The notes beneath the pieces were generated by a model. That model was given only the letters and a program-made list of their open reading frames with translations, was not told where the DNA came from and did no database searches. Shown here piece after piece: positions 2,645 through 51,940 of a stretch of 64,000 bases of DNA. This DNA comes from Candidatus Magasanikbacteria bacterium RIFOXYC2_FULL_42_28. Its GTDB lineage: Bacteria > Patescibacteriota > Patescibacteriia > Magasanikbacterales > GWA2-37-8. Each line of letters opens with the position of its first letter. Position 1 is the stretch's first letter. Location: NCBI GenBank assembly GCA_001784435.1, contig MFQZ01000001.1, positions 156,205-220,204 of the forward strand, given 5' to 3'. A program made the position numbers and the translations under genes.

Positions 2645-3550
2645 TCACACTATCATCGCTAACCCCAAACCAATCAACACAATCGCCCCCACCTCTTGGA
2701 TAATCTCAGATTTACTATATTCTTCTTTAAACAATTTCGGCCAAAAACGCGATAACAAAAATACCAAAATAATTAAGAGCGCGTATTGCACCCCGGCCAA
2801 AGCGTTGATAACAGTAACACTGCCCAGCGCGATGGCGTATTGGACCAACACCACGCCCACAATCGCCAAAATTTTATTAATGACAATAATTGGTAAACTA
2901 CGGGCGGGTATTTTTGTTTTCTTGGTTGGTGGCGTGCGTTTAAATAAATTTCGCCTTAAAACCGGCGACACCAAGAGCATCGCCCCAAATACCCCCATTA
3001 TCCCCCGCGTCCAAATAAAACCGGTCCAGAAATCATAACTGTTATACAAATACTTGGCTGACACGTGCGACACGGCAAACAGCGCGGCCGCGACTAGCCC
3101 CCAAAGCATCGCCGAGTTTAATTCGTAATGATTTTTTTTGTATTCAAACGCCACGGCCAAAGTCCCGACCGATAACAAAAACACACCAAAAAGTTGCGAG
3201 TTGGTTAAATATTCCGCCAAAAATAAAGAACTGAAAATTAAAACAAATAACGGAATTGATCCGCCCACCAGTGGCCCGATATGGCTCACTTCGCTTTTCA
3301 AAAACCCCCGATACATCGCCCATAAAGCCAAAGTAAATGAAACGCCGGAAACCGTGGCCACAAAAAAATCTTTGCCAAAATCAAACGGTTGGCCATAAAA
3401 CGGCAGTAAAAAAAATACGACCAAAACCGGAAAAGCGGAATAAAAAACAAAGGCAATCGGCCGAACTTTTTCCGATGTTAAAATATACTTATCGGAAATG
3501 GCGACAATGGCCAAGAAAAAATAACCGAGTAAGGCGATGGGGAGAAACAT
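2645..3550 (-). CDS. DMT-superfamily (EamA-like) permease
   Basis: 10-TM hydrophobic profile with two EamA-like halves; start moved to MFLPIALLGYFF because the upstream MTLEIGNLTFF in the track is a translation of the family A repeat. Confidence 0.6.
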   Translation of the reverse strand: MFLPIALLGYFFLAIVAISDKYILTSEKVRPIAFVFYSAFPVLVVFFLLPFYGQPFDFGKDFFVATVSGVSFTLALWAMYRGFLKSEVSHIGPLVGGSIPLFVLIFSSLFLAEYLTNSQLFGVFLLSVGTLAVAFEYKKNHYELNSAMLWGLVAAALFAVSHVSAKYLYNSYDFWTGFIWTRGIMGVFGAMLLVSPVLRRNLFKRTPPTKKTKIPARSLPIIVINKILAIVGVVLVQYAIALGSVTVINALAGVQYALLIILVFLLSRFWPKLFKEEYSKSEIIQEVGAIVLIGLGLAMIV

Positions 3551-3554
3551 AAAA

Positions 3555-3672
3555 AATGTCAAATTTCCAATTTCCAATGTCAAACAAAATCCAAAATCCC
3601 AATATCAAATTTGAAATTTTGGCTTTGACATTTGATATTGATTTGAAATTGGAAATTTTGATTTTGAAATTA
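3555..3672. repeat. family A palindromic element abutting start of DMT gene
   Basis: atgtcaaatttccaatttccaatgtcaaa...tttgaaattggaaattttgattttgaaatt. Confidence 0.7.
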
Positions 3673-3710
3673 CCACTATTATTTTACCATATTTTTGACT
3701 TTTAAACAAA

Positions 3711-3739: not shown

Positions 3740-3878
3740 CAAATTACTCCTCGGCTCTCTAAAATATTCAACTAATTAAATATTTTAGAGATCGGAGCCG
3801 AGGAGGGAAAGTGTGGCGGCTCGACGATCTCGCGGAAGGGCGAGAGGTGGCCGCTGGGTGGGAGTGGGGAAAGGGGGT

Positions 3879-4262
3879 CTAGTCGTGGTGCCAGCCACCC
3901 TCCTGGAGGAGGGAGTGCCCGCCCTTGGGGACAAAGGTCGGGGCGGGCTCGCCGAGCGACACGCGGGTCGTGGTGAAGCAAGCGCGGTCGCCGTCCTTGA
4001 CCTCTTCCACGCGCAGAACGTCGCCATCGCGGAGACCGAGCGGGACGAACCCGACGACCCCGCGAACCTTCTCGCCGCGCATCATCAGGCGGTACTGACC
4101 GCCATCTTGGGTCAGACGAACAATCATGGGGTGAGTGAAGCGCACGCTGTCACGATCCTTCCGATCGCAGCTCGTGGACTTCTGGTAAACGCACCCGTCG
4201 CGAAAGACGAACGTCTGCCCGGCCAAAAGATTCATACACACTCCAGATACTTGTTTGTCCAC
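3879..4262 (-). CDS. hypothetical small protein encoded in GC-rich island 1
   Basis: Only long ORF in the island that is preceded by a TATAAT -10 (plus 4400-4405) and followed by two tandem hairpins (3748-3806 large inverted repeat, 3711-3739). Composition is strongly GC-rich compared with the flanks. Confidence 0.4.
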   Translation of the reverse strand: MDKQVSGVCMNLLAGQTFVFRDGCVYQKSTSCDRKDRDSVRFTHPMIVRLTQDGGQYRLMMRGEKVRGVVGFVPLGLRDGDVLRVEEVKDGDRACFTTTRVSLGEPAPTFVPKGGHSLLQEGGWHHD

Positions 4263-4804
4263 GCTCCCCGCGCGGACTTCTTGTCAAACCTGACTCACAC
4301 CGGACACACTCCGGTATGGTGAGTCATCCTGCACATCTACAACGCCCAAAGCACTGTTATGCTCTCGGCGTTGTAGACGCACACTTGTAAAGAACTATCA
4401 TTATACCCTGCACCAGTCCGCACCATAGGCGGACGATGCAGGGCTAAACAAAACACCCCGCAACATTCGTCGCGGGGTGTGTGTAATTTTTATTTAACTT
4501 TACTTTGTAAAATTATTACACATTACCCCACGTCCAAACGGCAATACCAAAAAGGACAAGACCTTGATGGCCCAGCGTACGCGATTAATAATGTGTAAAT
4601 TATTTTTCATATATATTATATACTCTCATATCTGGAAAATATGTCAATAAAGTTATCCACAGGGCTTCGCCTTCGGCTACGCCCTGTAAACTTGGTTTAC
4701 CCGGCGTAGCGTAGCAAAGCCGGGCCATGTAAACTGGTGATAATATCTTTAAAATCAACTTCTTTGTCTAAATTATTTTGGCTAATTTTAGCCACTTTTA
4801 CCCC

Positions 4805-8095: not shown

Positions 8096-8165
8096 TCCGA
8101 CGAAAGTCGGAATCTCTGTCGGTTGGTCAGTGGGCCAGAGATCCCGATTTTCATCGGGATGACAG
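8090..8165. repeat. family B structured element (tgtcattccgacGAAAgtcggaat...gatcccgattttcatcgggatgaca)
   Basis: Terminal inverted repeat TGTCATyCCGA / TCGGGATGACA with an internal GNRA hairpin; sits directly 5' of the Elp3 start. Confidence 0.6.
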
Positions 8166-8176
8166 TAAAAATTTGT

Positions 8177-9853
8177 ATGGCTAAAATTGAAGCGGAGATT
8201 ATCAAACAGGCAATTCTTTTGCCTAATCTAACTACCGACACGTTTTCTAACCTGAAACGTGATATTTTGCGTAAATTTAAAGCACCTACTAGCCCATCCA
8301 CAGCAGCGCTTCTGAAAGTTTACCACAAATTGACCCGTTTAGGCAAGATTAAGCGATCGGCAATTTTAGAAAAATTACTGGTGCGCCGAGGTGTGAGGAC
8401 TTTGTCGGGCGTGTCTATCGTCACTTCCCTCACTAAACCCTTCCCCTGCCCGGGCAAATGCACCTACTGCCCCAATGATGTCAAAATGCCCAAGAGTTAT
8501 ATTTCCGACGAACCGGCGGCCGCGCGCGCCTTAATGCTCCGCTTTGACCCGTATGACCAAATGGTGCGCCGATTGGAAGCCTTGGCCGATAATGGACACC
8601 CAACTGATAAAATTGAACTCATTATCAAAGGCGGAACTTGGAACTCATACCCGCTTGCTTATCAATATTGGTTTGTCGCCCGCAGTTTTGAAGGCGCCAA
8701 TGAATATTATAGTAAAAAATTAAAAAAGTTTAAAGTTCATAAAGCTGACAGTGAGAATGGTCTAACTGTAAAACAAATTTTAGACAAATTAGCCACTGCC
8801 CAAAAGAAAAATGAAAAAAGCCGTAATCGGATTATTGGCCTGACTTTGGAAACTAGGCCAGATCATGTTACCGAAGCGACAATAAATCAGATGCGTTTGC
8901 AAGGTGCGACGCGCATTGAGCTCGGCGTGCAAACCACCGATGATAAAATTCAAGAACGAACTAAACGCGGGCATAATGCCGAGCAGGCCAAAAACGCGAC
9001 TAAATTACTGCGCCACTATGGTTTTAAAGTGGATTTCCATTTGATGCCCCAACTGCCAGGCTCGACGCCAACGGGTGATTTAAAAATGTTAAAAGAAATT
9101 TTTGCTGACCCGGCATATCGCCCCGATATGGTTAAAATTTATCCCTGCACAGTCGTGGATAACACAGAATTATACGAAGAGGTAAAACGCGGGGAATTTA
9201 AACCCTACTCTGATAAAAAATTAATTGAAATTTTAAAAATTTTTAAAAGCGAAGTTGTCCCATACTATTGCCGGATCTCGCGCCTAATTCGCGATATCCC
9301 CTCTCAACACATTAAAGCCGGCAACACGATGACCAATTTGCGCCAAGTACTTCAAGCCGAATTAAAAGCCGAAGGCAAAAAATGTAAATGCCTACGCTGT
9401 CGCGAAATCGGCCACTCAACAAGTGGCGTGGCTGGTGTTTCCCCCCTCCTGCCCGAGGAGGGGGCGAGGGGGCGGTGGGAGCCAAAATTATTTATAGATA
9501 AATACGCGGCGAGTGGCGGACACGAATATTTTTTAAGTTGGGAAGATAAAAAACGCGAAGTCGTCTATGGCTTCTGTCGCTTACGTGTGGACAAAAACGG
9601 CATCTATCCTGCCTTTATTCGCGAATTGCATGTGTACGGCCAAATGGTAGAAGTAGGTGGACATGAAAAAAGCGCCAGCCAACATTTTGGCTTAGGAAAA
9701 AAATTAATGATTGCTGCGGAAAAAATCGCCAAAAAAGATAAGGCCGGCAAAATTGCGGTTATTGCCGGAATTGGTGTTCGGGAGTATTATAGGAAGACAG
9801 GATATGGGTTGGAGAGTACTTATATGGTTAAAACTCTAAATACTAAGTCCTAA
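8177..9853 (+). CDS. elp3: Elp3-type tRNA modification enzyme (radical SAM + GNAT acetyltransferase)
   Basis: Radical-SAM Cys cluster CPGKCTYCP; C-terminal GNAT Q/R-x-x-G-x-G/A-like segment HFGLGKKLMIAAEKIA. Start moved to MAKIEAEII; the upstream track residues are the family B repeat. Confidence 0.8.
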   Translation: MAKIEAEIIKQAILLPNLTTDTFSNLKRDILRKFKAPTSPSTAALLKVYHKLTRLGKIKRSAILEKLLVRRGVRTLSGVSIVTSLTKPFPCPGKCTYCPNDVKMPKSYISDEPAAARALMLRFDPYDQMVRRLEALADNGHPTDKIELIIKGGTWNSYPLAYQYWFVARSFEGANEYYSKKLKKFKVHKADSENGLTVKQILDKLATAQKKNEKSRNRIIGLTLETRPDHVTEATINQMRLQGATRIELGVQTTDDKIQERTKRGHNAEQAKNATKLLRHYGFKVDFHLMPQLPGSTPTGDLKMLKEIFADPAYRPDMVKIYPCTVVDNTELYEEVKRGEFKPYSDKKLIEILKIFKSEVVPYYCRISRLIRDIPSQHIKAGNTMTNLRQVLQAELKAEGKKCKCLRCREIGHSTSGVAGVSPLLPEEGARGRWEPKLFIDKYAASGGHEYFLSWEDKKREVVYGFCRLRVDKNGIYPAFIRELHVYGQMVEVGGHEKSASQHFGLGKKLMIAAEKIAKKDKAGKIAVIAGIGVREYYRKTGYGLESTYMVKTLNTKS

Positions 9854-9957
9854 ACCCTAAACAAATCCTAATGTTCAAAATCTAAACTATCAATTTTGAA
9901 CATTTGAATTTGAAATTTTGAACTTGTTTAGAATTTAGGGTTTAGTATTTAGAATTT
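9846..9957. repeat. family C palindromic element (arms tctaaa(c/t)tctaaa... / tagaatttagggtttagtatttagaat)
   Basis: cctaaaccctaaacaaatcctaatgttcaaaatctaaac...ttgtttagaatttagggtttagtatttagaattt. Confidence 0.6.
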
Positions 9958-9967
9958 AAATAAAAAT

Positions 9968-12540: not shown

Positions 12541-13980
12541 ATGTTACAAATACAAGCGCTTGAAATATTAAAAACCGGCGCCAATGTTTTTTTAACCGGC
12601 GAACCGGGTGCAGGTAAAACGCATACCATCAACGAGTATGCGCAGTATTTGCGCGCGCATGAAATTGAACCGGCGATTACCGCGGCAACTGGAATTGCGG
12701 CCACGCATTTGGGCGGAGTTACTATTCATTCGTGGAGTGGGATTGGCATTAAATCCGAATTAACCAAATTGGATTTGAACTATATCAACTCCAATAAATA
12801 TGTGACCAAACGAATTAAGCCGGCGAAAGTTTTGGTTATTGACGAAGTGTCAATGCTTTCGCCCAGCACTTTGGCGATGGTGGACGCGGTCTGTCGGCGC
12901 GTAAAACAAAACATTGCGCCGTTTGGTGGAATGCAAATAATTTTGGTAGGTGATTTTTTTCAGCTACCACCAATTGTAAAAAATAATTACGACAAAACAC
13001 CCACACTGCTGAACGAAACTGTACCTCGCTTCGCCTACGACTCCCCCGCTTGGGAGCGCGCGAATTTTATCACCTGTTATTTAACCGAACAATATCGCCA
13101 AGATGATGCCAACTTTTTGGATATTTTGACAGCGATTAGACGCAACAATTTTACCAATGATCATTTGGGCTGTATCAAAACCCGCAAAATTGAACTGCGC
13201 CAAATACCGGAAGACATTACTAAACTTTACACGCACAATGTTGACGTGGACACGGTAAATTCAAAAAAATTAGCCCTACTGCCAAACGAACCGTGCGAAT
13301 ATTTGATGAACGAACACGGTCATAGTTTTTTGACAGCCACCTTAAAAAAGGGCTGTCTGTCGCCCGAAGTGCTCCATCTAAAAATCGGCGCATCCGTAAT
13401 GTTTACCAAAAATAATTCGCGCGAAGGTTATGTGAATGGTACGCTCGGAACCGTCATCGGCTTTGAACCAGCGACCAGCTGGCCGGTAGTCAAAACCAAA
13501 AACGGCCAAAGAATTGAGGTAACGCCGGTGGATTGGACCATTGAAGAAGATGGCAAAGTCCGCGCCAAAATCACCCAGTTGCCCCTACGTTTGGCCTGGG
13601 CGATTACCGTGCACAAAAGCCAAGGGATGAGCTTGGACGAGGCCACGATGGATTTATCGCAGGTGTTTGAATATGGCCAAGGGTATGTGGCGCTCTCGCG
13701 CGTACGGCGCTTGTCGGGCTTACATCTGTTGGGTTGGAATGAACGCTCATTTCAAGTGCACCCGGAAGTTTTAGCCAAAGATGAATCATTTCGGACAGCG
13801 TCAAAAACAGCCGAAAAGGAATTTATAAAATTCACTCCCAAAGATTTAAAACAACAACACTTAAATTTTGTGGCCAGATGCGCCGGCCGGTTTATCGTGC
13901 CCGGTTCGGAAAAAAAGATTCTGGTCGCAAGCAAAGTATTTAAAAAGAAGAAAAAGAAGAAAACAATTGGTAAATTTTGA
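12541..13980 (+). CDS. RecD/Pif1-family ATP-dependent DNA helicase
   Basis: Walker A GEPGAGKTHT, VLVIDEVSML, QLPPI, ITVHKSQGMSLD; poly-Lys C-terminal tail. Start moved to MLQIQALEIL; the upstream track residues translate the B repeats. Confidence 0.8.
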   Translation: MLQIQALEILKTGANVFLTGEPGAGKTHTINEYAQYLRAHEIEPAITAATGIAATHLGGVTIHSWSGIGIKSELTKLDLNYINSNKYVTKRIKPAKVLVIDEVSMLSPSTLAMVDAVCRRVKQNIAPFGGMQIILVGDFFQLPPIVKNNYDKTPTLLNETVPRFAYDSPAWERANFITCYLTEQYRQDDANFLDILTAIRRNNFTNDHLGCIKTRKIELRQIPEDITKLYTHNVDVDTVNSKKLALLPNEPCEYLMNEHGHSFLTATLKKGCLSPEVLHLKIGASVMFTKNNSREGYVNGTLGTVIGFEPATSWPVVKTKNGQRIEVTPVDWTIEEDGKVRAKITQLPLRLAWAITVHKSQGMSLDEATMDLSQVFEYGQGYVALSRVRRLSGLHLLGWNERSFQVHPEVLAKDESFRTASKTAEKEFIKFTPKDLKQQHLNFVARCAGRFIVPGSEKKILVASKVFKKKKKKKTIGKF

Positions 13981-14026
13981 ATTTTACATTGTCACTTTCC
14001 CGCCATAGGCGGGTCCGCCTATGGCG

Positions 14027-14080
14027 GAAATATTGGACATTTTTTTGGAAATTGGAAATTGGAAATTTGACATTATCAAA
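14027..14080. repeat. partial family A element between convergent helicase and pyk
   Basis: ggacatttttttggaaattggaaattggaaatttgacatt. Confidence 0.5.
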
Positions 14081-15509
14081 TCACTTCCCGCACCTCCACC
14101 AAATTCACATGCCCGGCTTCCCCTACCGGCTCACCGGCCACAACAATCATCTTGTCCCCTTTATTAGCAAACTTTTCTTTTTTAATGTAAACCATTGATT
14201 TTTTTATCAACTCTTCAATCGTTTTGCAGACCGGCAAAATAAACGGCTTAACGCCCCATGATAAATTTAATTGTCGCTGGACGCGCGCGTCATGCGTGGC
14301 CACGAGCACCGGAATTTCACTACGAAGGTGGCTAATCATCCGGCCAGTCTCGCCGGTTAAAGACGCGGCTAAAATTAATTTAGCGCCCACATTCTCTGCT
14401 AATAACCGCGACAATTGCACAATTGATTCGTCTACTTGCGAACCTTTTTTGCGTATCACCGCCCCGGGCAAGTCATCATAAGTGGACGCCTCCGTAACCA
14501 TCACGATTTCGGCCATAGTCCGCACGGACAGCGCCGGAAATTTGCCAACCGCGGTTTCATTAGATAACATCACCGCATCGGTGTGATCAATAACGGCATT
14601 AGCGATATCGGACACTTCAGCACGCGTCGGACGGATATGCTCTTGCATGGAATCTAACATTTGCGTCGCCACAATTACGGGCTTCGCGGCCGCGTTGCAT
14701 AAATCAATTAAACGTTTTTGCACCAAAGGCACTTGCGCGGCCGGCAATTCTACCCCCATATCGCCACGCGCCACCATAATACCATCAGCGACCGCGATAA
14801 TTTTTTCCATATTGGCCACGGCCGATTGATTTTCAATTTTAGCAATAATTTTTGTCGGACTACCCGAATTTATTTTATGAGTTTTTTCAATTTTGGTAAT
14901 TAAAGCGCGCGCCTGTTTAATATCGTCAGCCGAATGCACAAACGACAGCGCGACCGCGTCGACGCCCAATTTAATACAAAATTCCAAATCCGCTTTATCT
15001 TTGTCTGTTAAAGACAGCATATCCAATTTGCTATCCGGCAAATTAACGCCTTTGCGCGCGCTGACGAGTCCACCTTCGGCTACCGTCGCGAAAATCTTAT
15101 CTTTGGAAACGCGGGTGATTTTTAAAGCGATTTTACCATCATCAATTAATACCCGCTCTCCCGCGCGCAAACATTTTTGCAGACCAAAAAAATCTACCGG
15201 TATTACTCCGGCTTCATTGGTTTTGCTTTCCGGCGCTAAAACCACTTTTTGATTAATTTTTAAAACGACCGGGACGCGTAAATTTCCCAAACGAAATTTG
15301 GGGCCACGCATATCGGCCATTATCAAAACCGGCTCGTGATATTTTTTCCCGGCAACGCGAATGGCGCGATACAACCGGCGATGTTCATTATGCGAACCGT
15401 GCGAAAAATTAAGCCGAGCGCAATTTAAGCCGGCGCGAACCATTTGAGAAATAATTTTGCCACTGGCCGAGGCCGGGCCGATGGTGGCGACAATTTTAGT
15501 GCGTTTCAT
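14076..15509 (-). CDS. pyk: pyruvate kinase
   Basis: MKRTKIVATIGPAS..., MVARGDMGVE motif. Confidence 0.9.
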   Translation of the reverse strand: MKRTKIVATIGPASASGKIISQMVRAGLNCARLNFSHGSHNEHRRLYRAIRVAGKKYHEPVLIMADMRGPKFRLGNLRVPVVLKINQKVVLAPESKTNEAGVIPVDFFGLQKCLRAGERVLIDDGKIALKITRVSKDKIFATVAEGGLVSARKGVNLPDSKLDMLSLTDKDKADLEFCIKLGVDAVALSFVHSADDIKQARALITKIEKTHKINSGSPTKIIAKIENQSAVANMEKIIAVADGIMVARGDMGVELPAAQVPLVQKRLIDLCNAAAKPVIVATQMLDSMQEHIRPTRAEVSDIANAVIDHTDAVMLSNETAVGKFPALSVRTMAEIVMVTEASTYDDLPGAVIRKKGSQVDESIVQLSRLLAENVGAKLILAASLTGETGRMISHLRSEIPVLVATHDARVQRQLNLSWGVKPFILPVCKTIEELIKKSMVYIKKEKFANKGDKMIVVAGEPVGEAGHVNLVEVREVI

Positions 15510-15967
15510 TTTAGCAATGTTTTTAGTTGCTCTTTTTCCGCTTCGCCAATCGGCAATAACTGCATCAATTGTTCCAAAGAGTAGTTAGGCTTATCACCGC
15601 TCACATTGGCACCGGTGATATTTTCAAACACCTCTTTAAACTGACCAAGATACGGCGGTAAAAACCACAGCGCCAAAATAATCGGAACAACAATGAGCGC
15701 GAGCCGCAACCACCCGGCCACGGCCGACCAGCGCAATTTACGATTAATTTTACGATTCTGCTCGTAAATAATTTGCGACCATTTTAAATTTTTCTCTATC
15801 AACTCGCGCAAGTCCGCTTCGGAAGCGGGTGGTTTTTTGTCATTCTGAGGAAGCGTAGCGACCGAAGAATCCCTTACAGTTTGCGTTAAGGGATCCTTCG
15901 TTTCACTCAGGATGACAGGTGCGGATGTTGCCACCGTTTTTTCAACAGTATTTTTATGTTTAAACAT
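15506..15967 (-). CDS. hypothetical membrane protein; 5' part overlaps a family B element
   Basis: A C-terminal TM helix; residues VILSETKDPLTQTVRDSSVATLPQNDKKP are the in-frame translation of the B element at 15836-15917, so the true start is uncertain. Confidence 0.35.
   Translation of the reverse strand: MFKHKNTVEKTVATSAPVILSETKDPLTQTVRDSSVATLPQNDKKPPASEADLRELIEKNLKWSQIIYEQNRKINRKLRWSAVAGWLRLALIVVPIILALWFLPPYLGQFKEVFENITGANVSGDKPNYSLEQLMQLLPIGEAEKEQLKTLLK
15836..15917. repeat. family B element (close relative of copy at 61728-61800)
   Basis: tgtcattctgaggaagcgtagcgaccgaagaatcccttacagtttgcgttaagggatccttcgtttcactcaggatgaca. Confidence 0.55.
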
Positions 15968-16476: not shown

Positions 16477-16504
16477 ATAAAAAATTATGCGCAACTTCGG
16501 CATT

Positions 16505-16612
16505 TTAATGTCAAATTTCCAATGTCAAATGTCAAATCAAATCCAAAACCAAAATATCAAATAACGATTGTGGTGAATTGGAAATTGGAAATTTGGATTT
16601 TGACATTATCAC
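16505..16612. repeat. family A palindromic element immediately after ftsZ stop
   Basis: atgtcaaatttccaatgtcaaatgtcaaatcaaatccaaaacc...ggaaattggaaatttggattttgacatt. Confidence 0.7.
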
Positions 16613-16613
16613 T

Positions 16614-17834
16614 CTATATTCCCATTTTCTTCCGAATAAACGCCGGGATTTCCAAATCATCATCGGCCTTAGAGGCGGCCGTAACCACATCGTGGCGCTT
16701 GGCCAAATCGTGCGCCGGCGTATCCGTGTCAGTGATATTTTTTTGAGTGAACTGTTTGAATTTTTTTTCTTCTTCGGCCTCTTCTTTTTGAGTGCGACGC
16801 AAGAAATTGCTGGGCGCGTATTTAGCCGCGGAAAAAAACGAGGTCGCATTTTCTTCGGCTGTCAAAACCGGTGTTGGACGATGGCTATCAAAACCGGTGG
16901 CGATTACGTTAATGCGTAAATTATCTTCCATACTTTCGTCTACTGCCATACCCCAGATAACCTTGGCATCATCGGCCGCGCTACTCGTAATAATTTTGGC
17001 CGCCTCATCCACTTCGCTCATAGTAATACCGGAGCTACCGGTAATAGTGAATAAAATACCATGCGCGCCGTCAATGGACAATTCCAAAAGCGGACTGGAG
17101 ATCGCCGCTTGGGCCGCGGTTACGGCGCGATTTTCGCCTTTACCCATACCAATACCCATTAAAGCCGAACCGGTATTGCGCATAATCGTGCGCACGTCCG
17201 CGAAATCAACATTGACCATGCCTGGGACGGTAATTAATTCGGAAATACCTTGAACGCCCTGGCGCAAAATATCATCAATAGTTTGAAAGGCCGTCAGCAA
17301 AGAGGTTTTTTTGTCAATCACCTGCAAGACGCGATCGTTCGGGATGGTAATAATGGTATCCACATTGCGCGCCAATTCTTCCCAAGCATTTTCGGCAATA
17401 TCACGTCGTTGCGGACCTTCAAATGAAAACGGTTTGGTGACAACCGCGACCGTGAGCGCCCCCAAATCGCGCGCCACTTCCGCCACGACCGGAGACGCGC
17501 CTGAACCGGTGCCACCACCCAAACCACAAGTAATAAAAACCATGTCAGTATCTTTTAACAAATCGCGAATTTCATTTTGTGATTCTTCGGCCGCCTTACG
17601 CCCCACTTCCGGATCCATCCCCGCGCCGAGCCCGCGCGTAATCCCTTTGCCAATATGTAATTTATTGGGCGCGCTACTATGATGTAAGGCCTGAACATCG
17701 GTATTCATCACCACAAACTCCACGCCCCGAATTTTAGCGGAAAGCATGCGATTGACAGCCGCGCCACCCGAACCGCCGATACCAACTACTTTAATTTTGG
17801 CAAATGTTTCCATTTCCGGTTTTACTTGAGGCAT
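16614..17834 (-). CDS. ftsZ: cell division GTPase FtsZ
   Basis: Tubulin signature GGGTGSGASPVVA. Confidence 0.95.
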   Translation of the reverse strand: MPQVKPEMETFAKIKVVGIGGSGGAAVNRMLSAKIRGVEFVVMNTDVQALHHSSAPNKLHIGKGITRGLGAGMDPEVGRKAAEESQNEIRDLLKDTDMVFITCGLGGGTGSGASPVVAEVARDLGALTVAVVTKPFSFEGPQRRDIAENAWEELARNVDTIITIPNDRVLQVIDKKTSLLTAFQTIDDILRQGVQGISELITVPGMVNVDFADVRTIMRNTGSALMGIGMGKGENRAVTAAQAAISSPLLELSIDGAHGILFTITGSSGITMSEVDEAAKIITSSAADDAKVIWGMAVDESMEDNLRINVIATGFDSHRPTPVLTAEENATSFFSAAKYAPSNFLRRTQKEEAEEEKKFKQFTQKNITDTDTPAHDLAKRHDVVTAASKADDDLEIPAFIRKKMGI

Positions 17835-21920: not shown

Positions 21921-22376
21921 TTAATTTCCTTTTTTTAGAGGATTGTAATTGCGCTTAACTTCATACCCGTCTTTATAACCATCGCCATCAGTATCGGCAT
22001 TAAGCGGATCGGTTTTCCATACTTCTATTTCAGTTTTGTCCAAAATGCCATCGCCATCAGTATCGGATTTTTTCGGGTCAGTGCCAGATTGTTTTTCTTG
22101 ATCAGCCGTAAGACCGTCTAAATCTTCGTCCGTAATACGAATGTTATCTAATGCTTTATTCAACGCTACCAACTCTTCTTTTCTTTTTTGTTCCGAAGCG
22201 GTTTGACTTAAAGCGCCACCGGTTAATTTTTTACGCAGTGCCAATACTCCAAACACTAATCCGACCACCAACAACAAAACCACAATAACCGCGATAATTA
22301 TATTTAAAATTTTACCAAAAGAACGCGGTGGCGTATTATTGGTTGATGGTATTAAAGTGTCATTCATATACTTCAA
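21921..22376 (-). CDS. thrombospondin type-3-like repeat protein, TM-anchored
   Basis: DTDGDGILDKTEIEVWKTDPLNADTDGDGYKDGYEVKRNYNPL. Confidence 0.55.
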   Translation of the reverse strand: MKYMNDTLIPSTNNTPPRSFGKILNIIIAVIVVLLLVVGLVFGVLALRKKLTGGALSQTASEQKRKEELVALNKALDNIRITDEDLDGLTADQEKQSGTDPKKSDTDGDGILDKTEIEVWKTDPLNADTDGDGYKDGYEVKRNYNPLKKGN

Positions 22377-25300
22377 TAACTAAATCGTAAATAATTGCGC
22401 GAGCTACGAATATAATTAAGATTTTCTTCTAAACTTACCTCGGCTGAAGCTACCGGGTTAGGATACAAACTCTTAATATTAAACACATGCCAAGCACTGG
22501 CGTTAGGATTATCGTCAATGGCCGGATCATAATCTAAATCAAGAGCGGACAATTGGCGCGCGTCTTTTAACTCAAAAGTCCTGACCGGGAAAGAAAATCT
22601 GGAATCGGACGCATAGTCAATATTGGTGTCAAAATCCGGTTCATATACTTCCACTTTAACACCACCGTTATTGCGATAATAATTAATGGCCGAATCGTCG
22701 TCAGTGCGGACATAGAAAATAAAGGGATTCGCGCCCATAGCGTTCGTGTTGATTGTAAAGGACTCCATATTCAAACCGGATGCGGTGGTAGTGATGCCGT
22801 GGTACCAGATGCCCTGCTTCAAAAAGTTACTACCTGTCTCAGTAAAATAGCTCCTGCCAATAGCTGAGTTAAAATCTGTCCCCTCTTTGGCAACTACTGT
22901 ATTACCACCATTAATCGCCGTCACAAACCCGGCTGATAACTGCTTTGACGCATCGCCAACCCAACTCAAAACTACACGGATATGCCCTTTCTGTTGGGTA
23001 GAAGAAGCATTGATTCGGGGCGACAACAGTAAATCAAAATCAGCGGGTGTAGAATCGGCGCGAACCGGGAAAAATTTACGGCGAATAGGGGCGTTCGGGG
23101 TGTTAGTCACGAACGCGCGATAACCATTGACAGTTAAATAATAGGCGGCTAAATTATCATCTTTAATCGAACATCTGAGGTCAGAATTTACCTTAACCGA
23201 GCCAATACCATTGCCACCTTCTCTAAGCGCGTAACTGCTGGCGGTGGGCGAATCAATGCCAACCCGCAACATCTGCGCTAGGGAAATCGTTGATGACTGG
23301 GAATAATTTACTGTTGGTTTAGAATAAAATAATTCTAAAAGACCAGAGTGACTCGTGCCGGCATATAAATAATCATAAATTGGGTCAATGGAACTGGGCT
23401 CGATAACATTAATAATATTGCCACTAACCGCAACACCGTTGGTGTTGTCTTTGCCACAGGCCACGCAATTATCTTGGATCTCCGAGCAACTGCTGTTACA
23501 TTTTCTATCGCCTATTTGGCGAGGGGTATATTGTTCTAAATTAGTTTGGTATATCAAATTAGCCCAGTATGAAGTGCTGACATTAAGTGGTGCCACCAAT
23601 TGATCGCAACGGTAGACGTGATAACCGTTTACATCGTCAGTGATAGTACCGTAAATATTAGTGCCGGTTACAGAAGAATAAGTATTAATTCCGACATTTT
23701 CACATCGTTCCGGACTACTAGTATTTATCACGCCATCCCCGCACCAGCCGCTCGCCTCTTTACGAATCACATTGCGACAATCGGCCGAACAATAGGTGCA
23801 AGGGCGGTTATAGCCAGGCCTACAGGTTTGGCCGTTATTATTATAAATCAAGGCGCCGGTAACCGCGTTTACTTGGCTGTTGTCGCAGGCCTCGGTTTCC
23901 GATTCAACATGGCCGTTGCCACAGCCGGTGGGGGCAACCGGACCGCTATTGGGAGTGGTGCTGGCCGTGCACATCCAACCGCCCAAATCACGATAACTGT
24001 CAAACAAATCTTTTACTTCGGGCGTTGATAAAGCGCGATCAAAATATTTTAATTCGTCCATTTTGCCATAGTAAAAATACCAATCCTGTTTGGGTATCAT
24101 CCAATCTCCCTCAATTGCGCCGGAAGAGGTAAGACAACCGCTACCACTAGCGGTGGAACCGGAATAGGGATGGGTATGATCGCTATGTGTATAACCTCCG
24201 ACAATATTTACATAATTAATCGCGCTACCATACCAATTATCAGCGCCAAAACTGTAATTGCCACAATCTGTTAAATTGTTTAAAGGTTTTGAAGTGGTAA
24301 TTTTTAATACACCATTAACATAAACACGAGCGGAAGCGGAATTATTTACTACAACCAAATGCGTCCAAGTGTTAGGTGGCGCCGCTCCACTAATAGTGAG
24401 CGGATCAGGACTACCCGCAAATCTCGCACCGCCACCCGGTTGTCTTTCGTAATTATCTGCAACGCTACAACGAGCTGAATAGGTGGATGATATCGCCCCC
24501 ATGGCGTAAAATAATAGATCATTATTGCTAATATCGCGACGCAAAGTAAAACCACAATTATTGGTATCCATCCCGCCTTTTTCAATAATAGTATTAAATC
24601 GATGCACATTAACGGAATCCCATGGATGATCGTCCGGATTTATCCATAAAGAAATTGAGCTGGTGCCGGTAATTTCAAATCCGGAATAATTTGGCAAGGT
24701 TGAACTGGTGTATAAAAACAATCTTTTATTATAAGAGTTTTTGAATGCCCCACCAATTTTACCATCGCTTACCACCTGGGGGTATTGCGGAAAATCACCG
24801 GTCGCTGTTGAAGAAACGTTGATAACTGAAAATATTTTGTGTAAATTAAATTTATCACCACTGAAAGGATAAACATATCTTATGGCGCCACCCGAAGCCG
24901 GACGAGATCCTGGCGACAAACCCGCCAAATTATCCATCCCCCATTCGGCCAAAGCGCTAACTTTACGACAGCTCAAACAATTTCTCACGCCACTACTCCC
25001 ACCCACACTGCAAACCGGCTCGCCATCGCACTCTTCTCCTTGGCTGGCATCAATAACACCATCACCACAATACGAACCGAAACCGGAACAATCAGATTTA
25101 CAAGAATAACTATTGCTCATGGCATAAACCGAACAGGCGTATGGACTAGGGGTAGAGACACCCGCACCAGTGGCATAAGCGCATTTGCTAGAAACGGTAT
25201 CACAAAACTCATACGGTTCGTCCAGCGCGCCATTGCCACAGTACAGAGTGCTCGTGGCCTCACAAGTGTTGTTACATTTACCGTATCGTCCGTTTAGCAC

Positions 25301-39057: not shown

Positions 39058-40657
<1,600 letters not shown>

Positions 40658-41164
40658 AAAAAAAGTTCAATTAAGAACTATCAGAGAAGAGTGAAAAAAA
40701 TTCACTCTGCTAGATTTGAATCTCTTTTGACTGCTAAAGCCAAAAAGAGTTCTGGATTTATTCTGTATGTACGTCTTTCATTGTTTGTACTCAACAAACA
40801 ACTAAGACAATGTTTAGAGAAATAGATTTTGTGATTTTTGTCACGATTTGTATTGTCAACGAACACTGCTTCGCTACGCTACGCAGTGCAAGCATCTACT
40901 TGGACACGTTGCGCAGTGTAAACTTTCTTTCTTTTTACAGAAAGAAAAAAGAGGAACCAAAAATTTCAGTTACTCTTTTTTCTTTCCAGTATCCTATCTA
41001 CCTAACATTCCAAACAACAGCTTTTGGACTTAGAAGAAATCAATTGTTATAAAGTACTTGGTTGCCTTGATTTGTATTAAGCAAACGCAGTTTAACATAT
41101 TGTCAGAAACCTGTCAAGGGGTGGTTTGGGGTAAGGTGGGGATAAAAAAACCTTGATGTGTAGA

Positions 41165-41194
41165 TTGACACCTTATCATAATTTACTGTAATAT
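41165..41194 (+). promoter_or_regulatory. sigma70-like promoter TTGACA-18-TAATAT for the island 2 ORF
   Basis: ttgacaccttatcataatttactgtaatat, then RBS ggagagaaaaATG. Confidence 0.5.
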
Positions 41195-41234
41195 TATAAG
41201 TAACAGGTGGCAAAAAGTCGCCGAGGAGAGAAAA

Positions 41235-41528
41235 ATGGTCGCAGTCAGTATTACGATCATTGTCAACGACAAATGGAAATGGGAAGTTCGCAAACTGTTT
41301 GCGAAGAAAGGCGCAAACGGAGCAGGTGGGCACACGAGTGTCACCCGCAACGACAAACGAGAATTTGAAGTTCGTGTCGTAGGGGCGTACGATCAATCGC
41401 TGGGCACTTGCCCGGTGACCGAAACAACGGCCCCAACCCTCGCTCTGGCCCTGCGCCAGGTTCCACCTGATTTCCGGCGGGAAATAAAATCCCATCTGGC
41501 GCGCGTTCGTTGCGCCATGAAGAAGTGA
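41235..41528 (+). CDS. hypothetical 97-aa protein in GC-rich island 2
   Basis: ATG with a good RBS, own promoter, terminator hairpin at 41641-41672; the 3' two-thirds of the ORF and the downstream 100 bp are strongly GC-rich. Confidence 0.4.
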   Translation: MVAVSITIIVNDKWKWEVRKLFAKKGANGAGGHTSVTRNDKREFEVRVVGAYDQSLGTCPVTETTAPTLALALRQVPPDFRREIKSHLARVRCAMKK

Positions 41529-41640
41529 CCACCCGTCCCGCCCCCACCGCCCTCGAGCAACCCGCCCACCTCCGCCCCGGGTCTGCTCACAATGTTCAGA
41601 AATATTTTTGTGAATATTGTGAGACCCAGGTGCGAGTATT

Positions 41641-42373: not shown

Positions 42374-42394
42374 AATCGCACGAACAAAATTTTT

Positions 42395-42512
42395 AATTTC
42401 AAAATCCAAATATCCAATTTCCAATCAAATCCAAATTTCAGATGTTAAATGTCAAATTTGATATTTTTATTTTGACATTGATTTGACATTGGAAATTGGA
42501 AATTTGACATTA
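42395..42512. repeat. family A element abutting trmD start
   Basis: aatccaaatatccaatttccaatcaaatccaaatttcag...ttttgacattgatttgacattggaaattggaaatttgacatt. Confidence 0.7.
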
Positions 42513-42588
42513 CCAAATATTAATACAAAACCACTCCGCAATAATATATCACGGAGTGGTTTAAATGTCTAATCAGAATATCTGATTA

Positions 42589-43906: not shown

Positions 43907-44047
43907 TGTCATTCCCTACTAGATCCCGGCTTTCGCTGGGACGAATCCAGTCGCAATTTGTCATTTTGATTTTGAAATTTGAATTTGATTTGAAATTGGA
44001 AATTTGACATTCGTAAAGGGATTCCTCCACTGCGGTCGGAATGACAA
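43907..44047. repeat. family B element carrying a nested family A element (43958-44015)
   Basis: tttgtcattccctactagatcccggctttcgctgggacgaatccagtcgcaa[tttgtcattttgattttgaaatttgaatttgatttgaaattggaaatttgacatt]cgtaaagggattcctccactgcggtcggaatgacaaa. Confidence 0.6.
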
Positions 44048-44051
44048 AAAC

Positions 44052-47000
44052 TTAGGCCGGCACCCTCACATCCTCCAACTTCACACTCAACAACTTTGAC
44101 ACACCTTCGCCACCCATAGTAACACCGTACAAAACATCCGCGCCGTGCATCGTAACACGATTATGCGTAATCACGATAAATTGTGATTGGCGCGAAAGTT
44201 CGCTCATGATATTGGCAAAGCGCAAAGTGTTGGCTTCGTCTAACGCGGCTTCTACTTCGTCCATTACAACGAACGGCGCTGGGTTGCAGGACAAAATCGC
44301 ACAGACGAGCGCGATCGATGTAAGTGTGCGTTCACCGCCGGATAACGCGCTTAGATTTTTTATTTTTTTACCGGGTGGGCAGGCGGTAATATCAATCCCA
44401 GTTAACGTAGTAATTTTTTTACGTTTAGATTCGTCAGCCAAACCGTCCGCTCCCACCCCCTCTGCTTCTCCCCCTCGGGCAGGGGGAGACATGCCAATGC
44501 CCGCCACCGCACCCTCCAACTCTGCGTCCTCATCAAGCACCTCACCATAAATTTCTTCCAAAGCCGCGCTCCCACCATTAAATAAAATTTTGAAATAACG
44601 ATCAAATTCTTTGCGAATTTTTTTGAAAGATGCTTCGCGTTTCTTCTTCATTACTTCAGTTAATTCTTCAATCATTTTTTCTAAATCTGCTGTTGCTTTA
44701 TCTAAATCTGATAATTGCGCGGACAAGAAATCAAATTTTTCTTTGGTCGTAGCGTGTTCTTCAACCACACCTTCTTCAATACCACCAATTAAACTTAATT
44801 GATATTTTAATTTCTGAATTTCATCGGCGGTCACGGCCAACCCAGCACTATCCAACGCCTCAACAATCCGCTCCGACAAAGTCGCAGGTGAAGCGGAAAT
44901 TTCATTGCCCGCCTCGGCCATTAAGTCCTCGCGCTTGGTTTCTAATTTCGCCAATTGAATTTTCAAATCATTGCGCGAATTGATAATTGTGTTCACCGCT
45001 ACCTGCGCTTTCTGCATTTCATCTTGCAGATGAAACACGCGTTGTTTTTTCTCTTCTTCTTTATTATTAAAATCTTGAATTTCGCGGGAGGCACTCACAA
45101 CTAATTTTTCCGCGTCCGCAATATTTTTTTCAATCAAACTTTTTTCTTTACCCAAACCACCCAAATATTTACTATGCTCTTCCGGACTCATCTGGATAAA
45201 ATTTCTTTCTTTTTCCAAATCTGTTAATTCCAATAATTTCTGACGCACTTGCGTGCCCACAACCGCACTTTCAGCTTTGTATTTTTCCATTTCCGCGCGG
45301 CTAAACAAAATTTCACCGCGTTTTTCTTCTAACCGTTTTTCCACAATTCGCAAATCTTCGCGTAATCTTTCAACAACTTTTTGCGGATCATCACCACCCG
45401 CTTCCGGCGCTAACCATTTACCCGAAAATCCCGGGCCCCGACGATTACCTTTGCGATAACCACCACGCATCACGCCTTTACGCTCAATCACATCGCCGTC
45501 CAAAGTAACCATCCGAAATCGCCCAATTCCAATTCTCTGCGCTGTTTCCAAATTTTCTACCAACAAATTATCTCCCAAAACAAAGGAAAAAATTTCACGA
45601 AAACGATTATCGAATTTAATTAAATCAATTGCCCAACCGATTACACCCGCCTGCCCCAAAACATCATCTGTTTCTTGCCCCAACTCGCGCCCGCGGATTT
45701 TATTCATTGGCAAAAATGTCGCCACACCCATTCGCTCAGCGCGCAAAAATTGAATTGCGTTTTTTGCAGTCTCATCATCGCCTACAACAAGCGAAGACAA
45801 ATGTGAACCAGCTGCGACTTCCAAAGCCAAACGATATTCTTCATTCACCTCGCCCAATTCCGACAACATTCCATATACCTTGCCCAATCGCGAGCGATTA
45901 TCCAACACTGCCTTCACCGCCGACAACCCGCTCATTTCAAAATATTGACGTTCGGATTGCGCTTGATAGGTTTGGTGTTCAGCTTGTGATAATTTGACCG
46001 TTAATTCCGTGCGTTCAATTGATAAATTCTCTACTTCCCGATCTTTTTCCGCGATTATTCCATTCAATCGCGTCAACGCTAAATCCGCTTGCGCCTGACC
46101 AGTCTCCAAAACCGAACTTTCATTTTTTAAATCTAAAATCTTTTTTTCCAACCAGCCCAAATTTTGTTTACCGGCATCTGAATACGCGGTCTGTAATTTC
46201 CCAGACAAAATCGCCAACGATCTTTCAAAATCATTTTTTACTGCCATCGCTTGCTGATGTTTTTGTTGTAATTCCGCAAACACTTCCGCGCGCGTTGCCA
46301 ATTGCGCTATCTGCGATAACTCATTTTGAATATTCGTTAAATTTTCAAACGCGGTGCGATATTCTTTTTCAATTTTATTTAATTGCGTGTCCAATAAATC
46401 TGTTTCTTTTTTATTGATCAAATACAACGATCCATAATATTTTTCTTGACACTCACGCAAAGCCAATTCCACTTCCTGACGTTTTTCTAATTTTTTAACT
46501 TGACGCGATAATAATTTTAAACGCGGTTCAATTTCGGCGAGTAGTCGTGTCGCCTGTTCAGAATTTTCACGCGTGCGCGCCAATTTCAAAGACGCTTGGT
46601 GTTCTTTAATTTGAAATTCTTTAATTCCCGATGCTTCGTCTAAAAAATCTTTACGTTCGGATGGTGTCACCACCAAAAGCCGATCAATCGTGCCCTGCGA
46701 AATAATACTATATGAATGTTGCCCAAATTGGGCGCGCGCCAAAAGCAAATGAATGTCAAGCAAACGCACCGGACTATTATTTATCAAATATTCACCTTCG
46801 CCCGAGCGATACAACCGACGCGTGATAACAATCTCCGGATAATCAATGCCAAACCCACTGCCGGTATTATCCAAAACCATCGTCACCGAACATGCCGACA
46901 ACGCCCCTTTGTCAACCGAGCCATTAAAAATTACATCTTCACTTTTTTTCCCGCGCAATTGTTTCAGCGAGGTCTCACCCATCACCCACCGAATCGCGTC

Positions 47001-47141
47001 CACAACATTGGACTTGCCCGAACCATTCGGCCCCACGACCGCGGTAATACTAAAACGACCGTCCTTGGGCGGTATAAATTCCAAAATGGTCTGACGGGCA
47101 AATGATTTAAAGCCGTCAATTTCTAAGCGTTTGAGATACAT
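44052..47141 (-). CDS. smc: chromosome segregation protein SMC
   Basis: Walker A GPNGSGKSN, long coiled coils, hinge, C-terminal LSGGE signature and Walker B VMDEVEAALD. Contains a GC-rich in-frame insertion at about 44447-44530. Confidence 0.9.
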   Translation of the reverse strand: MYLKRLEIDGFKSFARQTILEFIPPKDGRFSITAVVGPNGSGKSNVVDAIRWVMGETSLKQLRGKKSEDVIFNGSVDKGALSACSVTMVLDNTGSGFGIDYPEIVITRRLYRSGEGEYLINNSPVRLLDIHLLLARAQFGQHSYSIISQGTIDRLLVVTPSERKDFLDEASGIKEFQIKEHQASLKLARTRENSEQATRLLAEIEPRLKLLSRQVKKLEKRQEVELALRECQEKYYGSLYLINKKETDLLDTQLNKIEKEYRTAFENLTNIQNELSQIAQLATRAEVFAELQQKHQQAMAVKNDFERSLAILSGKLQTAYSDAGKQNLGWLEKKILDLKNESSVLETGQAQADLALTRLNGIIAEKDREVENLSIERTELTVKLSQAEHQTYQAQSERQYFEMSGLSAVKAVLDNRSRLGKVYGMLSELGEVNEEYRLALEVAAGSHLSSLVVGDDETAKNAIQFLRAERMGVATFLPMNKIRGRELGQETDDVLGQAGVIGWAIDLIKFDNRFREIFSFVLGDNLLVENLETAQRIGIGRFRMVTLDGDVIERKGVMRGGYRKGNRRGPGFSGKWLAPEAGGDDPQKVVERLREDLRIVEKRLEEKRGEILFSRAEMEKYKAESAVVGTQVRQKLLELTDLEKERNFIQMSPEEHSKYLGGLGKEKSLIEKNIADAEKLVVSASREIQDFNNKEEEKKQRVFHLQDEMQKAQVAVNTIINSRNDLKIQLAKLETKREDLMAEAGNEISASPATLSERIVEALDSAGLAVTADEIQKLKYQLSLIGGIEEGVVEEHATTKEKFDFLSAQLSDLDKATADLEKMIEELTEVMKKKREASFKKIRKEFDRYFKILFNGGSAALEEIYGEVLDEDAELEGAVAGIGMSPPARGGEAEGVGADGLADESKRKKITTLTGIDITACPPGKKIKNLSALSGGERTLTSIALVCAILSCNPAPFVVMDEVEAALDEANTLRFANIMSELSRQSQFIVITHNRVTMHGADVLYGVTMGGEGVSKLLSVKLEDVRVPA

Positions 47142-49191: not shown

Positions 49192-49314
49192 GCGATATGC
49201 TCGGTTGGGGTTTACCGCGAACTATGTGTATATAAGCATAAATTTAGGTAAATGTCAATATTAAAAAATAAAAACACCGCGCGAATATGGCGAAGCGTTT
49301 AAAAATGATTACCC

Positions 49315-50711: not shown

Positions 50712-50842
50712 CCTGTTATATAAATATCAAAATGAAAATATCAAAAATCAAAATTTTAGTGTCGCTTCGCGACCGATTACACTAATTTTACATTTTACAC
50801 TGTCATTTTCCATTTTGATTTTTACATTTTAAATTCACTACC

Positions 50843-51799: not shown

Positions 51800-51823
51800 A
51801 TAGTTGATAAAATATACTTAATA

Positions 51824-51935: not shown

Positions 51936-51940
51936 ACATT

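Follow-up and report, generated by a model that had tools for sequence, protein, structure and literature searches.

Candidate intrastrand triplex repeats inside the Elp3 and SMC genes of a Candidatus Magasanikbacteria genome and in other CPR bacteria

The genes for Elp3 and SMC in a 64,000-nt stretch of Candidatus Magasanikbacteria bacterium RIFOXYC2_FULL_42_28 (contig MFQZ01000001.1; the whole 64-kb stretch is called the window here) each contain a GC-rich segment of 45 nt. We consider it highly likely that both segments are copies, representing two subfamilies, of a dispersed repeat that is found throughout the Candidate Phyla Radiation (CPR, Patescibacteria) and is built like a class II purine-motif intrastrand triplex. 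Every copy consists, in this order, of a pyrimidine arm, a loop, a purine arm, a short loop, the mirror image of the purine arm and the tail GGGAG. The two window copies and their parts are as follows.

8123..9853, plus strand: host gene for Elp3, a radical SAM / GNAT tRNA-modification enzyme (576 amino acids; homologues named Elp3, with PF04055/PF16199)
9437..9481, plus strand: Elp3 copy of the 45-nt element, GTTTCCCCCCTCCTGCCCGAGGAGGGGGCGAGGGGGCGGTGGGAG, boundaries from the identical PheT insert compared with an empty site
9437..9441, plus strand: 5' leader GTTTC of the Elp3 copy, part of the 45-nt insert
9442..9450, plus strand: pyrimidine arm CCCCCTCCT, perfect 9-bp Watson-Crick complement of 9456-9464
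9451..9455, plus strand: loop 1, GCCCG, the same loop as in the SMC copy
9456..9464, plus strand: purine arm AGGAGGGGG, hairpin partner of the pyrimidine arm
9465..9467, plus strand: loop 2, CGA
9468..9476, plus strand: putative third (reverse-Hoogsteen) strand GGGGGCGGT, mirror of the purine arm, 8/9 canonical triads
9477..9481, plus strand: 3' tail GGGAG
44052..47141, minus strand: host gene for the SMC chromosome segregation ATPase (1029 amino acids; PF02463, PF06470)
44450..44494, minus strand: SMC copy of the element, GCATGTCTCCCCCTGCCCGAGGGGGAGAAGCAGAGGGGGTGGGAG, 5' boundary by analogy only
44481..44489, minus strand: pyrimidine arm TCTCCCCCT
44476..44480, minus strand: loop 1, GCCCG
44467..44475, minus strand: purine arm AGGGGGAGA
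44464..44466, minus strand: loop 2, AGC
44455..44463, minus strand: putative third (reverse-Hoogsteen) strand AGAGGGGGT, 9/9 canonical triads, 0 mismatches
44450..44454, minus strand: 3' tail GGGAG

An earlier note on this DNA had described the segments as nearly identical palindromic elements of about 45 nt, inserted in frame. Reading back the sequence confirmed the quoted GC-rich sequences in Elp3 and SMC, and both inserts indeed keep the open reading frame (ORF) open in different frames, with CTG CCC GAG in one copy and CCT GCC CGA in the other. The length of about 45 nt also holds, with the exact extent corrected to 9437-9481 in Elp3 by the comparison of a filled and an empty site in PheT and to 44450-44494 in SMC by analogy. 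Nearly identical is too strong a wording, since the 40-nt cores agree, ungapped, at 29 of 40 positions; nine of the 11 differences are located in three covarying triads and two in loop 2. The stems of the two copies differ at three compensated positions, and both copies have the same spacing to GGTGGGAG. Palindromic describes the 5' 23 nt correctly but not the 3' half, which is a mirror repeat that covaries with the purine arm by the triplex code. The Elp3 copy is translated in frame as VSPLLPEEGARGRWE (residues 439-453), and the SMC copy encodes MSPPARGGEAEGVG, the in-frame reading around the site being MSPPARGGEAEGVGA.

The window has a GC content of 44%, and Elp3, SMC and other proteins encoded in it match CPR/Patescibacteria best, with Candidatus Magasanikbacteria as the closest named group. 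The exact 10-mer CTGCCCGAGG occurs in the window only twice, at the Elp3 and SMC sites, and these sites are also two of the seven GC-rich perfect hairpins of at least 7 bp found in the 64 kb. A search of the window for purine-motif intrastrand triplexes returned the Elp3 and SMC sites as the only GC-rich matches, plus one 7-nt AT-rich match; these three motifs (stem of at least 7) compare with a mean of 0.15 in 20 block-shuffled windows.

All three arms of the repeat covary. The position of an A in the purine arm differs between subfamilies, and it tracks a T in the pyrimidine arm and, mirrored in the third segment, an A or T. From the genome scan described below, 45 distinct cores among the matches listed were evaluated at positions left free by the search pattern, and 219 of the 225 triads (97%) were G·G-C, A·A-T or T·A-T. 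G·G-C was found in 182 of 184 cases, and at A-T pairs the third base was A in 26 cases, T in 11, C in four and G in none. If the register was shifted by 1-3 nt, only 45-74% of the triads of the same cores fitted. Hairpin covariation, counted independently, yielded 31 double-sided compensatory cells, a value reached in none of 500 shuffles. The metagenome scan, in which three triads were free (Y/R/R-or-N), gave 126 of 129 positions consistent with Watson-Crick pairing and likewise 126 of 129 consistent with Hoogsteen pairing, whereas shuffles had means of 92-94 of 129 and none of 2000 reached the observed values. Judged from these sequences, the choice of A or T opposite an A-T pair corresponds exactly to the purine-motif (antiparallel, reverse-Hoogsteen) code.

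Other pairings of the third segment were considered and rejected. A direct-repeat model, that is, an alternative Watson-Crick pairing of the third segment, reached 0.76 in its best register compared to 0.99 for the mirror register (genome-scan cores among the matches listed). A pyrimidine-motif fold of the complementary strand, or again an alternative Watson-Crick pairing, cannot explain the alternation of A and T opposite A-T. An additional pairing of GGG in the tail with CCC in loop 1 is unsupported, as the tails of other triplex families are not complementary to their loops. The published ITxF class II definition comprises a pyrimidine block, a purine block and an antiparallel third block (PMC4666352). 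Both window sites have a Watson-Crick hairpin within its limits (stem of 6-15 nt, loop of 1-6 nt) and a third block with at most one mismatch, the SMC copy forming 9/9 and the Elp3 copy 8/9 canonical triads.

The unit is a discrete insertion. The exact 45-mer of window positions 9437-9481 is also located in the C-terminal domain of PheT in Magasanikbacteria RIFOXYD2_FULL_41_14 (L077), and in the PheT gene of a sister genome (L118, 78% identity) the sequence runs from GGC directly into AAAAAAAGT, with exactly those 45 nt missing. The 15 insert residues are likewise missing from about 115 other PheT orthologues. No target-site duplication is visible at this filled/empty site, where the insert comprises 45 nt, and the insert ends GTTTC and GGGAG are not inverted repeats, so that the terminal inverted repeats of a miniature inverted-repeat transposable element (MITE) are missing in this comparison. 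The Elp3-type 40-nt core was found, besides Elp3 and PheT, in a third gene in antisense orientation (L165/L166), and the SMC-type core is present in IleRS with one change in loop 2 (L016/L164) and unchanged at another locus (L167). A search for further filled/empty pairs with peptide signatures in 360 Elp3, SMC and PheT homologues returned only the known copies. The length of the unit is the sum 5 + 3x9 + 5 + 3 + 5 = 45 nt, and one triad more or less in the stem changes it by 3 nt; a unit length of 3n+18 nt would therefore be frame-neutral.

Both segments belong to a dispersed repeat family, as expected from the identical 45-mer in the unrelated PheT gene and found with consensus scans of genomes and metagenomes. 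One genome per GTDB species was scanned with the pattern CCTGCCCGAGG-N12-18-GGTGGGAG, resulting in at least 114 loci. About 60 of the matches listed are from low-GC CPR genomes and the remainder, from high-GC genomes, clearly match by chance; the CPR groups represented among the matches listed are Andersen-, Uhr-, Buchanan-, Kerfeld-, Doudna-, Berkel-, Cerri-, Magasanik- and Saccharibacteria, plus some metagenome-assembled genomes with other labels. A scan of metagenome contigs added 48 matches in 43 distinct loci, and both scans together give about 100 copies among the matches listed, nearly all from CPR/Patescibacteria. Several copies can be present in one genome or sample, with at least five in Uhrbacteria JACPJN01 and at least nine in sample Ga0208246. 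Loop 2 has 3 nt in 49 of 57 copies (genome-scan matches listed, 8-nt and 9-nt stems) and is often TTA, and T/C-rich family conservation reaches about 3 nt upstream of the pyrimidine arm. Inverted doublets occur in Uhrbacteria and at other loci; both window copies are singlets.

Among viral contigs, two matches were found, both without the complementary pyrimidine arm and therefore due to chance, so there is no sign of a phage vector. An Rfam scan of the window found no family at either site and reported only the 16S rRNA (39059-40663) and tRNAs. The literature collection searched contained no earlier description of the element, no paper linking triplex motifs with CPR bacteria and none with these motif strings.

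Comparison with orthologues shows where the segments have been added and how they are conserved. Elp3 and SMC orthologues with about 60% identity do not contain them, confirming that the insert is not an ancestral linker. In Elp3 the site is a hypervariable linker between the C-terminal region of the radical SAM part and the GNAT domain, in SMC it is an acidic, variable loop of the C-terminal head that precedes the LSGGE signature. The closer Elp3 orthologue L001 (86% amino acid identity) retains the element with 43 consecutive unchanged nucleotides, from TTTCC to GGGA, and within the 45-nt unit only the first and the next-to-last base differ from the window copy (ATTT for GTTT and GGGAA for GGGAG). 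The SMC orthologue L003 (81% amino acid and 76.7% nucleotide identity) shares with the window gene a longest perfectly identical run of 50 nt, which contains the element. Element codons are identical in 13/13 cases between Elp3 and L001 and in 16/16 between SMC and L003, whereas the flanking codons have diverged. The gene-wide fraction of identical codons at conserved residues is about 0.65 (P of about 4e-3 for Elp3 and 7e-4 for SMC), and windows of the same length are fully identical in only 2 of 510 cases for Elp3 and 1 of 987 for SMC. Orthologous copies are conserved at the nucleotide level, and their synonymous sites are frozen.

The repeat is found inside genes, in frame and in both orientations. 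Of the 104 distinct family loci among the matches listed, 78 lie within long ORFs that extend for 40 codons or more to either side of the element, with 41 copies in sense and 37 in antisense orientation. A further 21 of the 104 are located in short frames or are intergenic. Ten host ORFs were confirmed by NCBIfam, namely PheT (twice), IleRS, ValRS, PolA, Der, SMC, GyrB, UvrA and TrxB. The same orientation relative to the coding strand, pointed out in the earlier note, applies to the two window copies, which are both sense, but not to the family as a whole. Per orientation, two of the three frames are used, resulting in the recurrent sense peptides SPPARGGxxGGG and LPLPEGExxGVG and, in antisense, PTPPNLPSGRGG and similar peptides. 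With the local GC skew of the flanks as proxy for the replication strand, no orientation bias was detected (46 vs 57, p=0.32). The lack of both a skew bias and a sense bias argues against a role at the mRNA level or in strand-specific replication. The predicted insert peptides include SPLLPEEGARGRW and SPPARGGEAEGVG. AlphaFold2 modelled Elp3 residues 434-450 without secondary structure and with a predicted local distance difference test (pLDDT) value below 50, flanked by well-predicted domains (alignment of 33 sequences), and the Elp3 insert is thus predicted to be a disordered, tolerated loop.

The closest known kind of element is the BoxC/PIT/TMECO class II intrastrand triplex motif of E. 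coli and other Proteobacteria. Intrastrand triplex motifs were defined by Hoyne and Maher (2000) and later by Holder et al. (2015), and BoxC/PIT/TMECO was characterised in E. coli (PMC4666352). The TMECO pattern is CCCTCNCCC-N3-6-GGGNGAGGG-N3-GGGNGAGGG, a class II purine motif with TTA or CCG as loop 2, and TMECO oligonucleotides form a triplex in vitro according to circular dichroism and nuclear magnetic resonance (PMC4666352). Some TMECO copies form inverted pairs; in E. coli K-12 the motif is "always located intergenically", it has been tied to local genome rearrangement, and no mobility gene linked to it was found (PMC4666352). The CPR element resembles it in having a C-rich 9-nt arm, a loop of 3-6 nt, a G-rich arm, a 3-nt loop that is often TTA and a mirroring G-rich arm; it is also multi-copy, dispersed and highly conserved, occasionally forms inverted head-to-head pairs and can have its G-rich strand on either genome strand. 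Unlike TMECO, it has the loop GCCCG and the tail GGGAG, its hosts are CPR/Patescibacteria, and about 75% of the copies are located inside ORFs and are translated. The TMECO consensus itself has 0 matches in the window and is present elsewhere in L014, L056 and L059. We regard the element as a variant of this known class of repeats that is CPR-wide and mainly intragenic, the novelty being its location.

Three further kinds of repeats share some properties with it. Rickettsia palindromic elements (RPEs) have a length of about 150 bp, form ten families in Rickettsia and are often located in frame inside unrelated genes (PMC10969869). Like them, the CPR element looks like a selfish repeat that is found in frame in unrelated housekeeping genes, with the ORF preserved, and tolerated as an extra peptide. 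RPEs are palindromic and yield one conserved peptide in one orientation, whereas the CPR element has 40-45 nt, a mirror third arm and two frames per orientation; compared with the palindromes of about 100-150 bp of RPE-1 to RPE-10, its 45 nt, of which 23 are palindromic, set it apart in size and structure. Repetitive extragenic palindromic (REP) sequences and the composite forms derived from them (BIMEs, bacterial interspersed mosaic elements, and REPINs, REP doublets forming hairpins) are likewise short hairpins (20-40 nt for REPs) with covarying stems and conserved flanking bases, occurring as singlets and inverted doublets. REPs, however, are extragenic, have a conserved 5' GTAG and a cognate gene for a REP-associated tyrosine transposase (RAYT) and do not have a mirror arm; CPR copies are mostly intragenic with a T/C-rich leader without GTAG. 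H-DNA mirror repeats share the purine mirror repeat and the reverse-Hoogsteen triad code. H-DNA arises when duplex DNA is supercoiled, with one strand remaining unpaired, whereas the CPR element has pyrimidine, purine and purine segments in cis on one strand, and its fold therefore needs single-stranded DNA.

A possible course of events would start with the G-rich strand becoming single-stranded, upon which the pyrimidine and purine arms might pair into a hairpin of 9 bp with GCCCG as its loop. The G-rich segment at the 3' side could then turn back by way of the 3-nt loop and lie in the major groove, running antiparallel to the purine arm and forming reverse-Hoogsteen triads (G·G-C, A·A-T and T·A-T). 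We infer that the triplex forms in cells and that a trans-acting enzyme, or a process linked to replication or repair, recognises and copies the folded single strand with its family-specific loop and tail; such an external factor is proposed because the 45 nt encode nothing themselves. The unit would arrive as a discrete, frame-neutral insertion of 45 nt, and copies landing in frame in tolerant surface loops would survive and be translated as short disordered peptides rich in Pro, Gly, Arg and Glu. The element would be a passenger without host function and the peptides would be by-products.

Several points weigh against the triplex repeat as we describe it. Triplex formation in this organism is predicted from a sequence pattern, and nearest-neighbour DNA folding of the 45-mers gave hairpin energies no better than those of shuffles, with a method that cannot model triplexes. 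The Elp3 copy has one non-canonical triad, a C opposite an internal A-T pair in the third strand, and the same C variant is present in L001, L077, L161, L165 and L166. Independent covariation events are few (about 6-7 variants of the stem), and members of one subfamily are related to each other. The family filter demanded a perfect hairpin of at least 7 bp, and about 4-5 of about 62 CPR matches of the genome scan have one stem mismatch. Loop 1 (GCCCG) and the tail GGGAG look invariant because the search patterns fixed both. As only a single filled/empty pair was found, both the 3n+18 rule and, for the SMC copy, the 5' boundary are extrapolated. The frozen synonymous sites could result from gene conversion between copies as well as from selection on the DNA structure, and the two are inseparable here. 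As for BoxC/PIT/TMECO, no mobilising gene was found.

Concerning mobility, the element might be a derivative of a single-stranded DNA transposon, such as the ends of IS200/IS605 or REP/REPIN elements with a RAYT-type HUH transposase, in which the hairpin and its flanks would be the recognition site and the mirror segment incidental or a guide. This explanation, which we judge unlikely, is about the mode of movement and does not conflict with a triplex fold. It would suit the discrete insertion without target-site duplication, the conserved family-specific loop and tail next to freely covarying stems, and the inverted head-to-head doublets of some genomes, which resemble REPINs and BIMEs. However, no transposase was found, in an analysis that covered 64 kb of this genome and 8-kb flanks of other loci and did not include a genome-wide transposase search, a GTAG-like tetranucleotide is missing, and the copies are mostly intragenic whereas REPs are extragenic. 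In addition, IS608-type elements show a lagging-strand bias, and the orientation of the CPR copies is not biased relative to the local GC-skew strand (46 vs 57, p=0.32). The earlier note had interpreted the segments as RPE-like, that is, as a selfish palindromic element or simple hairpin MITE tolerated as a peptide insertion. This is right for the behaviour, namely in-frame peptides in variable loops, and not for the structure, the 45-nt size and the family membership. The perfect 9-bp hairpin, the compensatory stem changes between the two window copies and the insertion polymorphism agree with it as well, and RPEs are a precedent for frequent in-frame insertion (PMC10969869). The 3' 17-22 nt, however, are conserved and covary in the mirror and not in the inverted register, which no hairpin model accounts for, and an element of 45 nt without terminal inverted repeats or target-site duplication differs from one of about 150 bp; we regard a plain RPE-like hairpin as quite improbable.

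An RNA-level element, in which the hairpin acts in the mRNA by ribosome pausing, transcript stabilisation or protein binding, would be in line with the sense orientation of both window copies, by which the mRNA carries the G-rich strand, and with the frozen synonymous sites. The family as a whole, with 41 sense and 37 antisense copies and about a fifth intergenic among the matches listed, speaks against it, as do the missing Rfam match and the A/T alternation in the third strand, which agrees only with a purine motif formed by the G-rich DNA strand. According to earlier work cited in the introduction of PMC4666352, RNA moreover does not form purine-motif triplexes, and a function in the mRNA thus appears very improbable. 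Since several G-tracts follow the loop (GGGGG, GGGGG and GGG), a G-quadruplex could be envisaged in place of a triplex. A quadruplex has no need of the complementary pyrimidine arm or of A/T at mirror positions, in many copies the tracts of three or more G outside the hairpin number only three, and covariation couples every G-rich position to a C-G pair, which makes this explanation highly improbable. Both sites are hypervariable, indel-prone loops, as expected for an ancestral GC-rich low-complexity linker or a chance resemblance; yet the identical 45-mer in unrelated genes and genomes, the empty site in about 115 PheT orthologues and the numbers from shuffled sequences (a mean of 0.15 vs three for the window and 0 vs 191 for CPR loci) leave next to no likelihood for it.

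The existence and importance of intrastrand DNA triplexes in living cells is an old question. For the E. coli BoxC/TMECO repeats, we know of no function or mobility mechanism established in about 25 years. A family with hundreds of natural variants in which the arms covary according to the reverse-Hoogsteen code, down to the alternation of A and T opposite A-T pairs, provides the type of comparative structure evidence used for RNA, applied here to a DNA triplex. In the streamlined CPR genomes such elements are mainly located inside essential genes and are translated, explaining many odd Pro/Gly-rich "insertions" in CPR proteins, which is relevant for annotation, structure prediction and phylogenetic alignments of marker genes. 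The one clean filled/empty site is an entry point toward the copying mechanism.

The GCCCG family is one of several in these bacteria. A search for class I and class II motifs in 110 low-GC loci (796 kb; among the matches listed) resulted in 191 GC-rich triplex motifs, all of class II and none of class I, and the block-shuffled set of CPR loci contained none. They comprise 104 members of the GCCCG family and 87 members of other families with different loops and tails, for example CCCTCCCTT-AAGGT-AAGGGAGGG-TTG-GGGTGGGTT-ATGA. It is conceivable, though we think it rather doubtful, that CPR bacteria harbour a superfamily of mobile, frame-neutral (3n+18 nt) triplex elements that are copied via a folded single-stranded DNA intermediate recognised by an enzyme and reside in surface loops of essential proteins, with about one element per 4-9 kb in some lineages. 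If true, this superfamily would allow the purine-motif triplex code to be read in vivo from natural sequences, and in minimal genomes it would generate diversity of protein loops or local instability.

Additional forms were observed at individual loci. L099 (UvrA region), L022, L072, L014 and others carry the TTAAGGTAA type with an ATGA tail, a TTTTCAA type, a TGATAA type and the TMECO-like CCCTCTCCC, with more than 13 triplex motifs within 8 kb around one UvrA gene (L099). Composites were seen in L022 (minus-strand copy), L043, L055, L072, L099 and L107, where a reverse unit, ACCCCCTC-TAA-CTCCCCCT-loop-AGGGGGAG, precedes the forward unit in head-to-head arrangement at a distance of about 12 nt. 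There are also tandem reiterations of the third strand plus TGGGAG with differing stem variants, and several composites are still inside ORFs. The AT-rich match in the window, TTTCTTT-CTGTAA-AAAGAAA-G-AAAGTTT (40920-40947, minus strand), is compatible with a class II triplex of 7 nt; it lies upstream of the 16S rRNA gene and is, given its length, probably due to chance.

The window contains further repeats. An 82-nt palindrome, GTCATCCTGAGTGAAACGAAGGATCCC...GGGATTCTTCGGTCGC...CTCAGAATGAC, is present in two copies with 82% identity (15836-15917 and 61718-61799). The former is located inside the ORF 15506-15967 (minus strand), near the N-terminus of a small protein, and is translated in frame as ...PVILSETKDPLTQTVRDSSVATLPQND..., the latter is located between ORFs. 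This is the second, more truly RPE-like in-frame palindrome of the window, and its peptide type (VILSEAKDL...QNDN) is also found in other CPR Elp3 proteins. The same variable loops of other CPR Elp3 and SMC proteins hold repeat-type peptides such as VIPAEAGIQ..., WIPAFAGMT, SLRGAKRRGDP...IARNDK and SPPYEGGAHGVV. AT-rich intergenic repeats with TTTGACATTGGAAATT / AATGTCAAATTTCCAATT units, often long imperfect palindromes between genes, are abundant at the following positions.

2524-2662: AT-rich repeat
3550-3688: AT-rich repeat
9828-9964: AT-rich repeat
13960-14091: AT-rich repeat
16502-16624: AT-rich repeat
41785-41856: AT-rich repeat
42383-42528: AT-rich repeat
43948-44012: AT-rich repeat
50792-50839: AT-rich repeat
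51812-51965: AT-rich repeat
53172-53306: AT-rich repeat

Related GC-rich motifs had also been proposed at 3781-3830 and 41535-41585, at the ends of two GC islands, but these are not members of the family. The first site coincides with a separate long AT-centred palindrome, CTCCTCGGCTCTCTAAAATATT...AATATTTTAGAGATCGGAGCCGAGGAG (3749-3806), directly upstream of the ORF 3813-4322 (56% GC), for which no family match was found in Pfam/NCBIfam. The second (41535-41632, minus strand) consists of a palindrome, GGGTCTCACAATATTCA...TGAACATTGTGAGCAGACCC, followed by the G-tract run GGGGCGGAGGTGGGCGGGTTGCTCGAGGGCGGTGGGGGCGGGACGGGTGG, which looks quadruplex-like, just upstream of the start of the ORF 41103-41495, itself without a family match. 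GC island 2 is explained by the 16S rRNA gene at 39059-40663. Another island with 69% GC (about 48490-49215) lies between an NYN-domain gene and a Bro-N gene and contains an ORF of about 180-190 amino acids on the minus strand, MAAKRFTSGQLREF..., without a Pfam or NCBIfam match; this island is probably foreign DNA. The window also contains a giant ORF of 3903 amino acids (22373-34084, minus strand).

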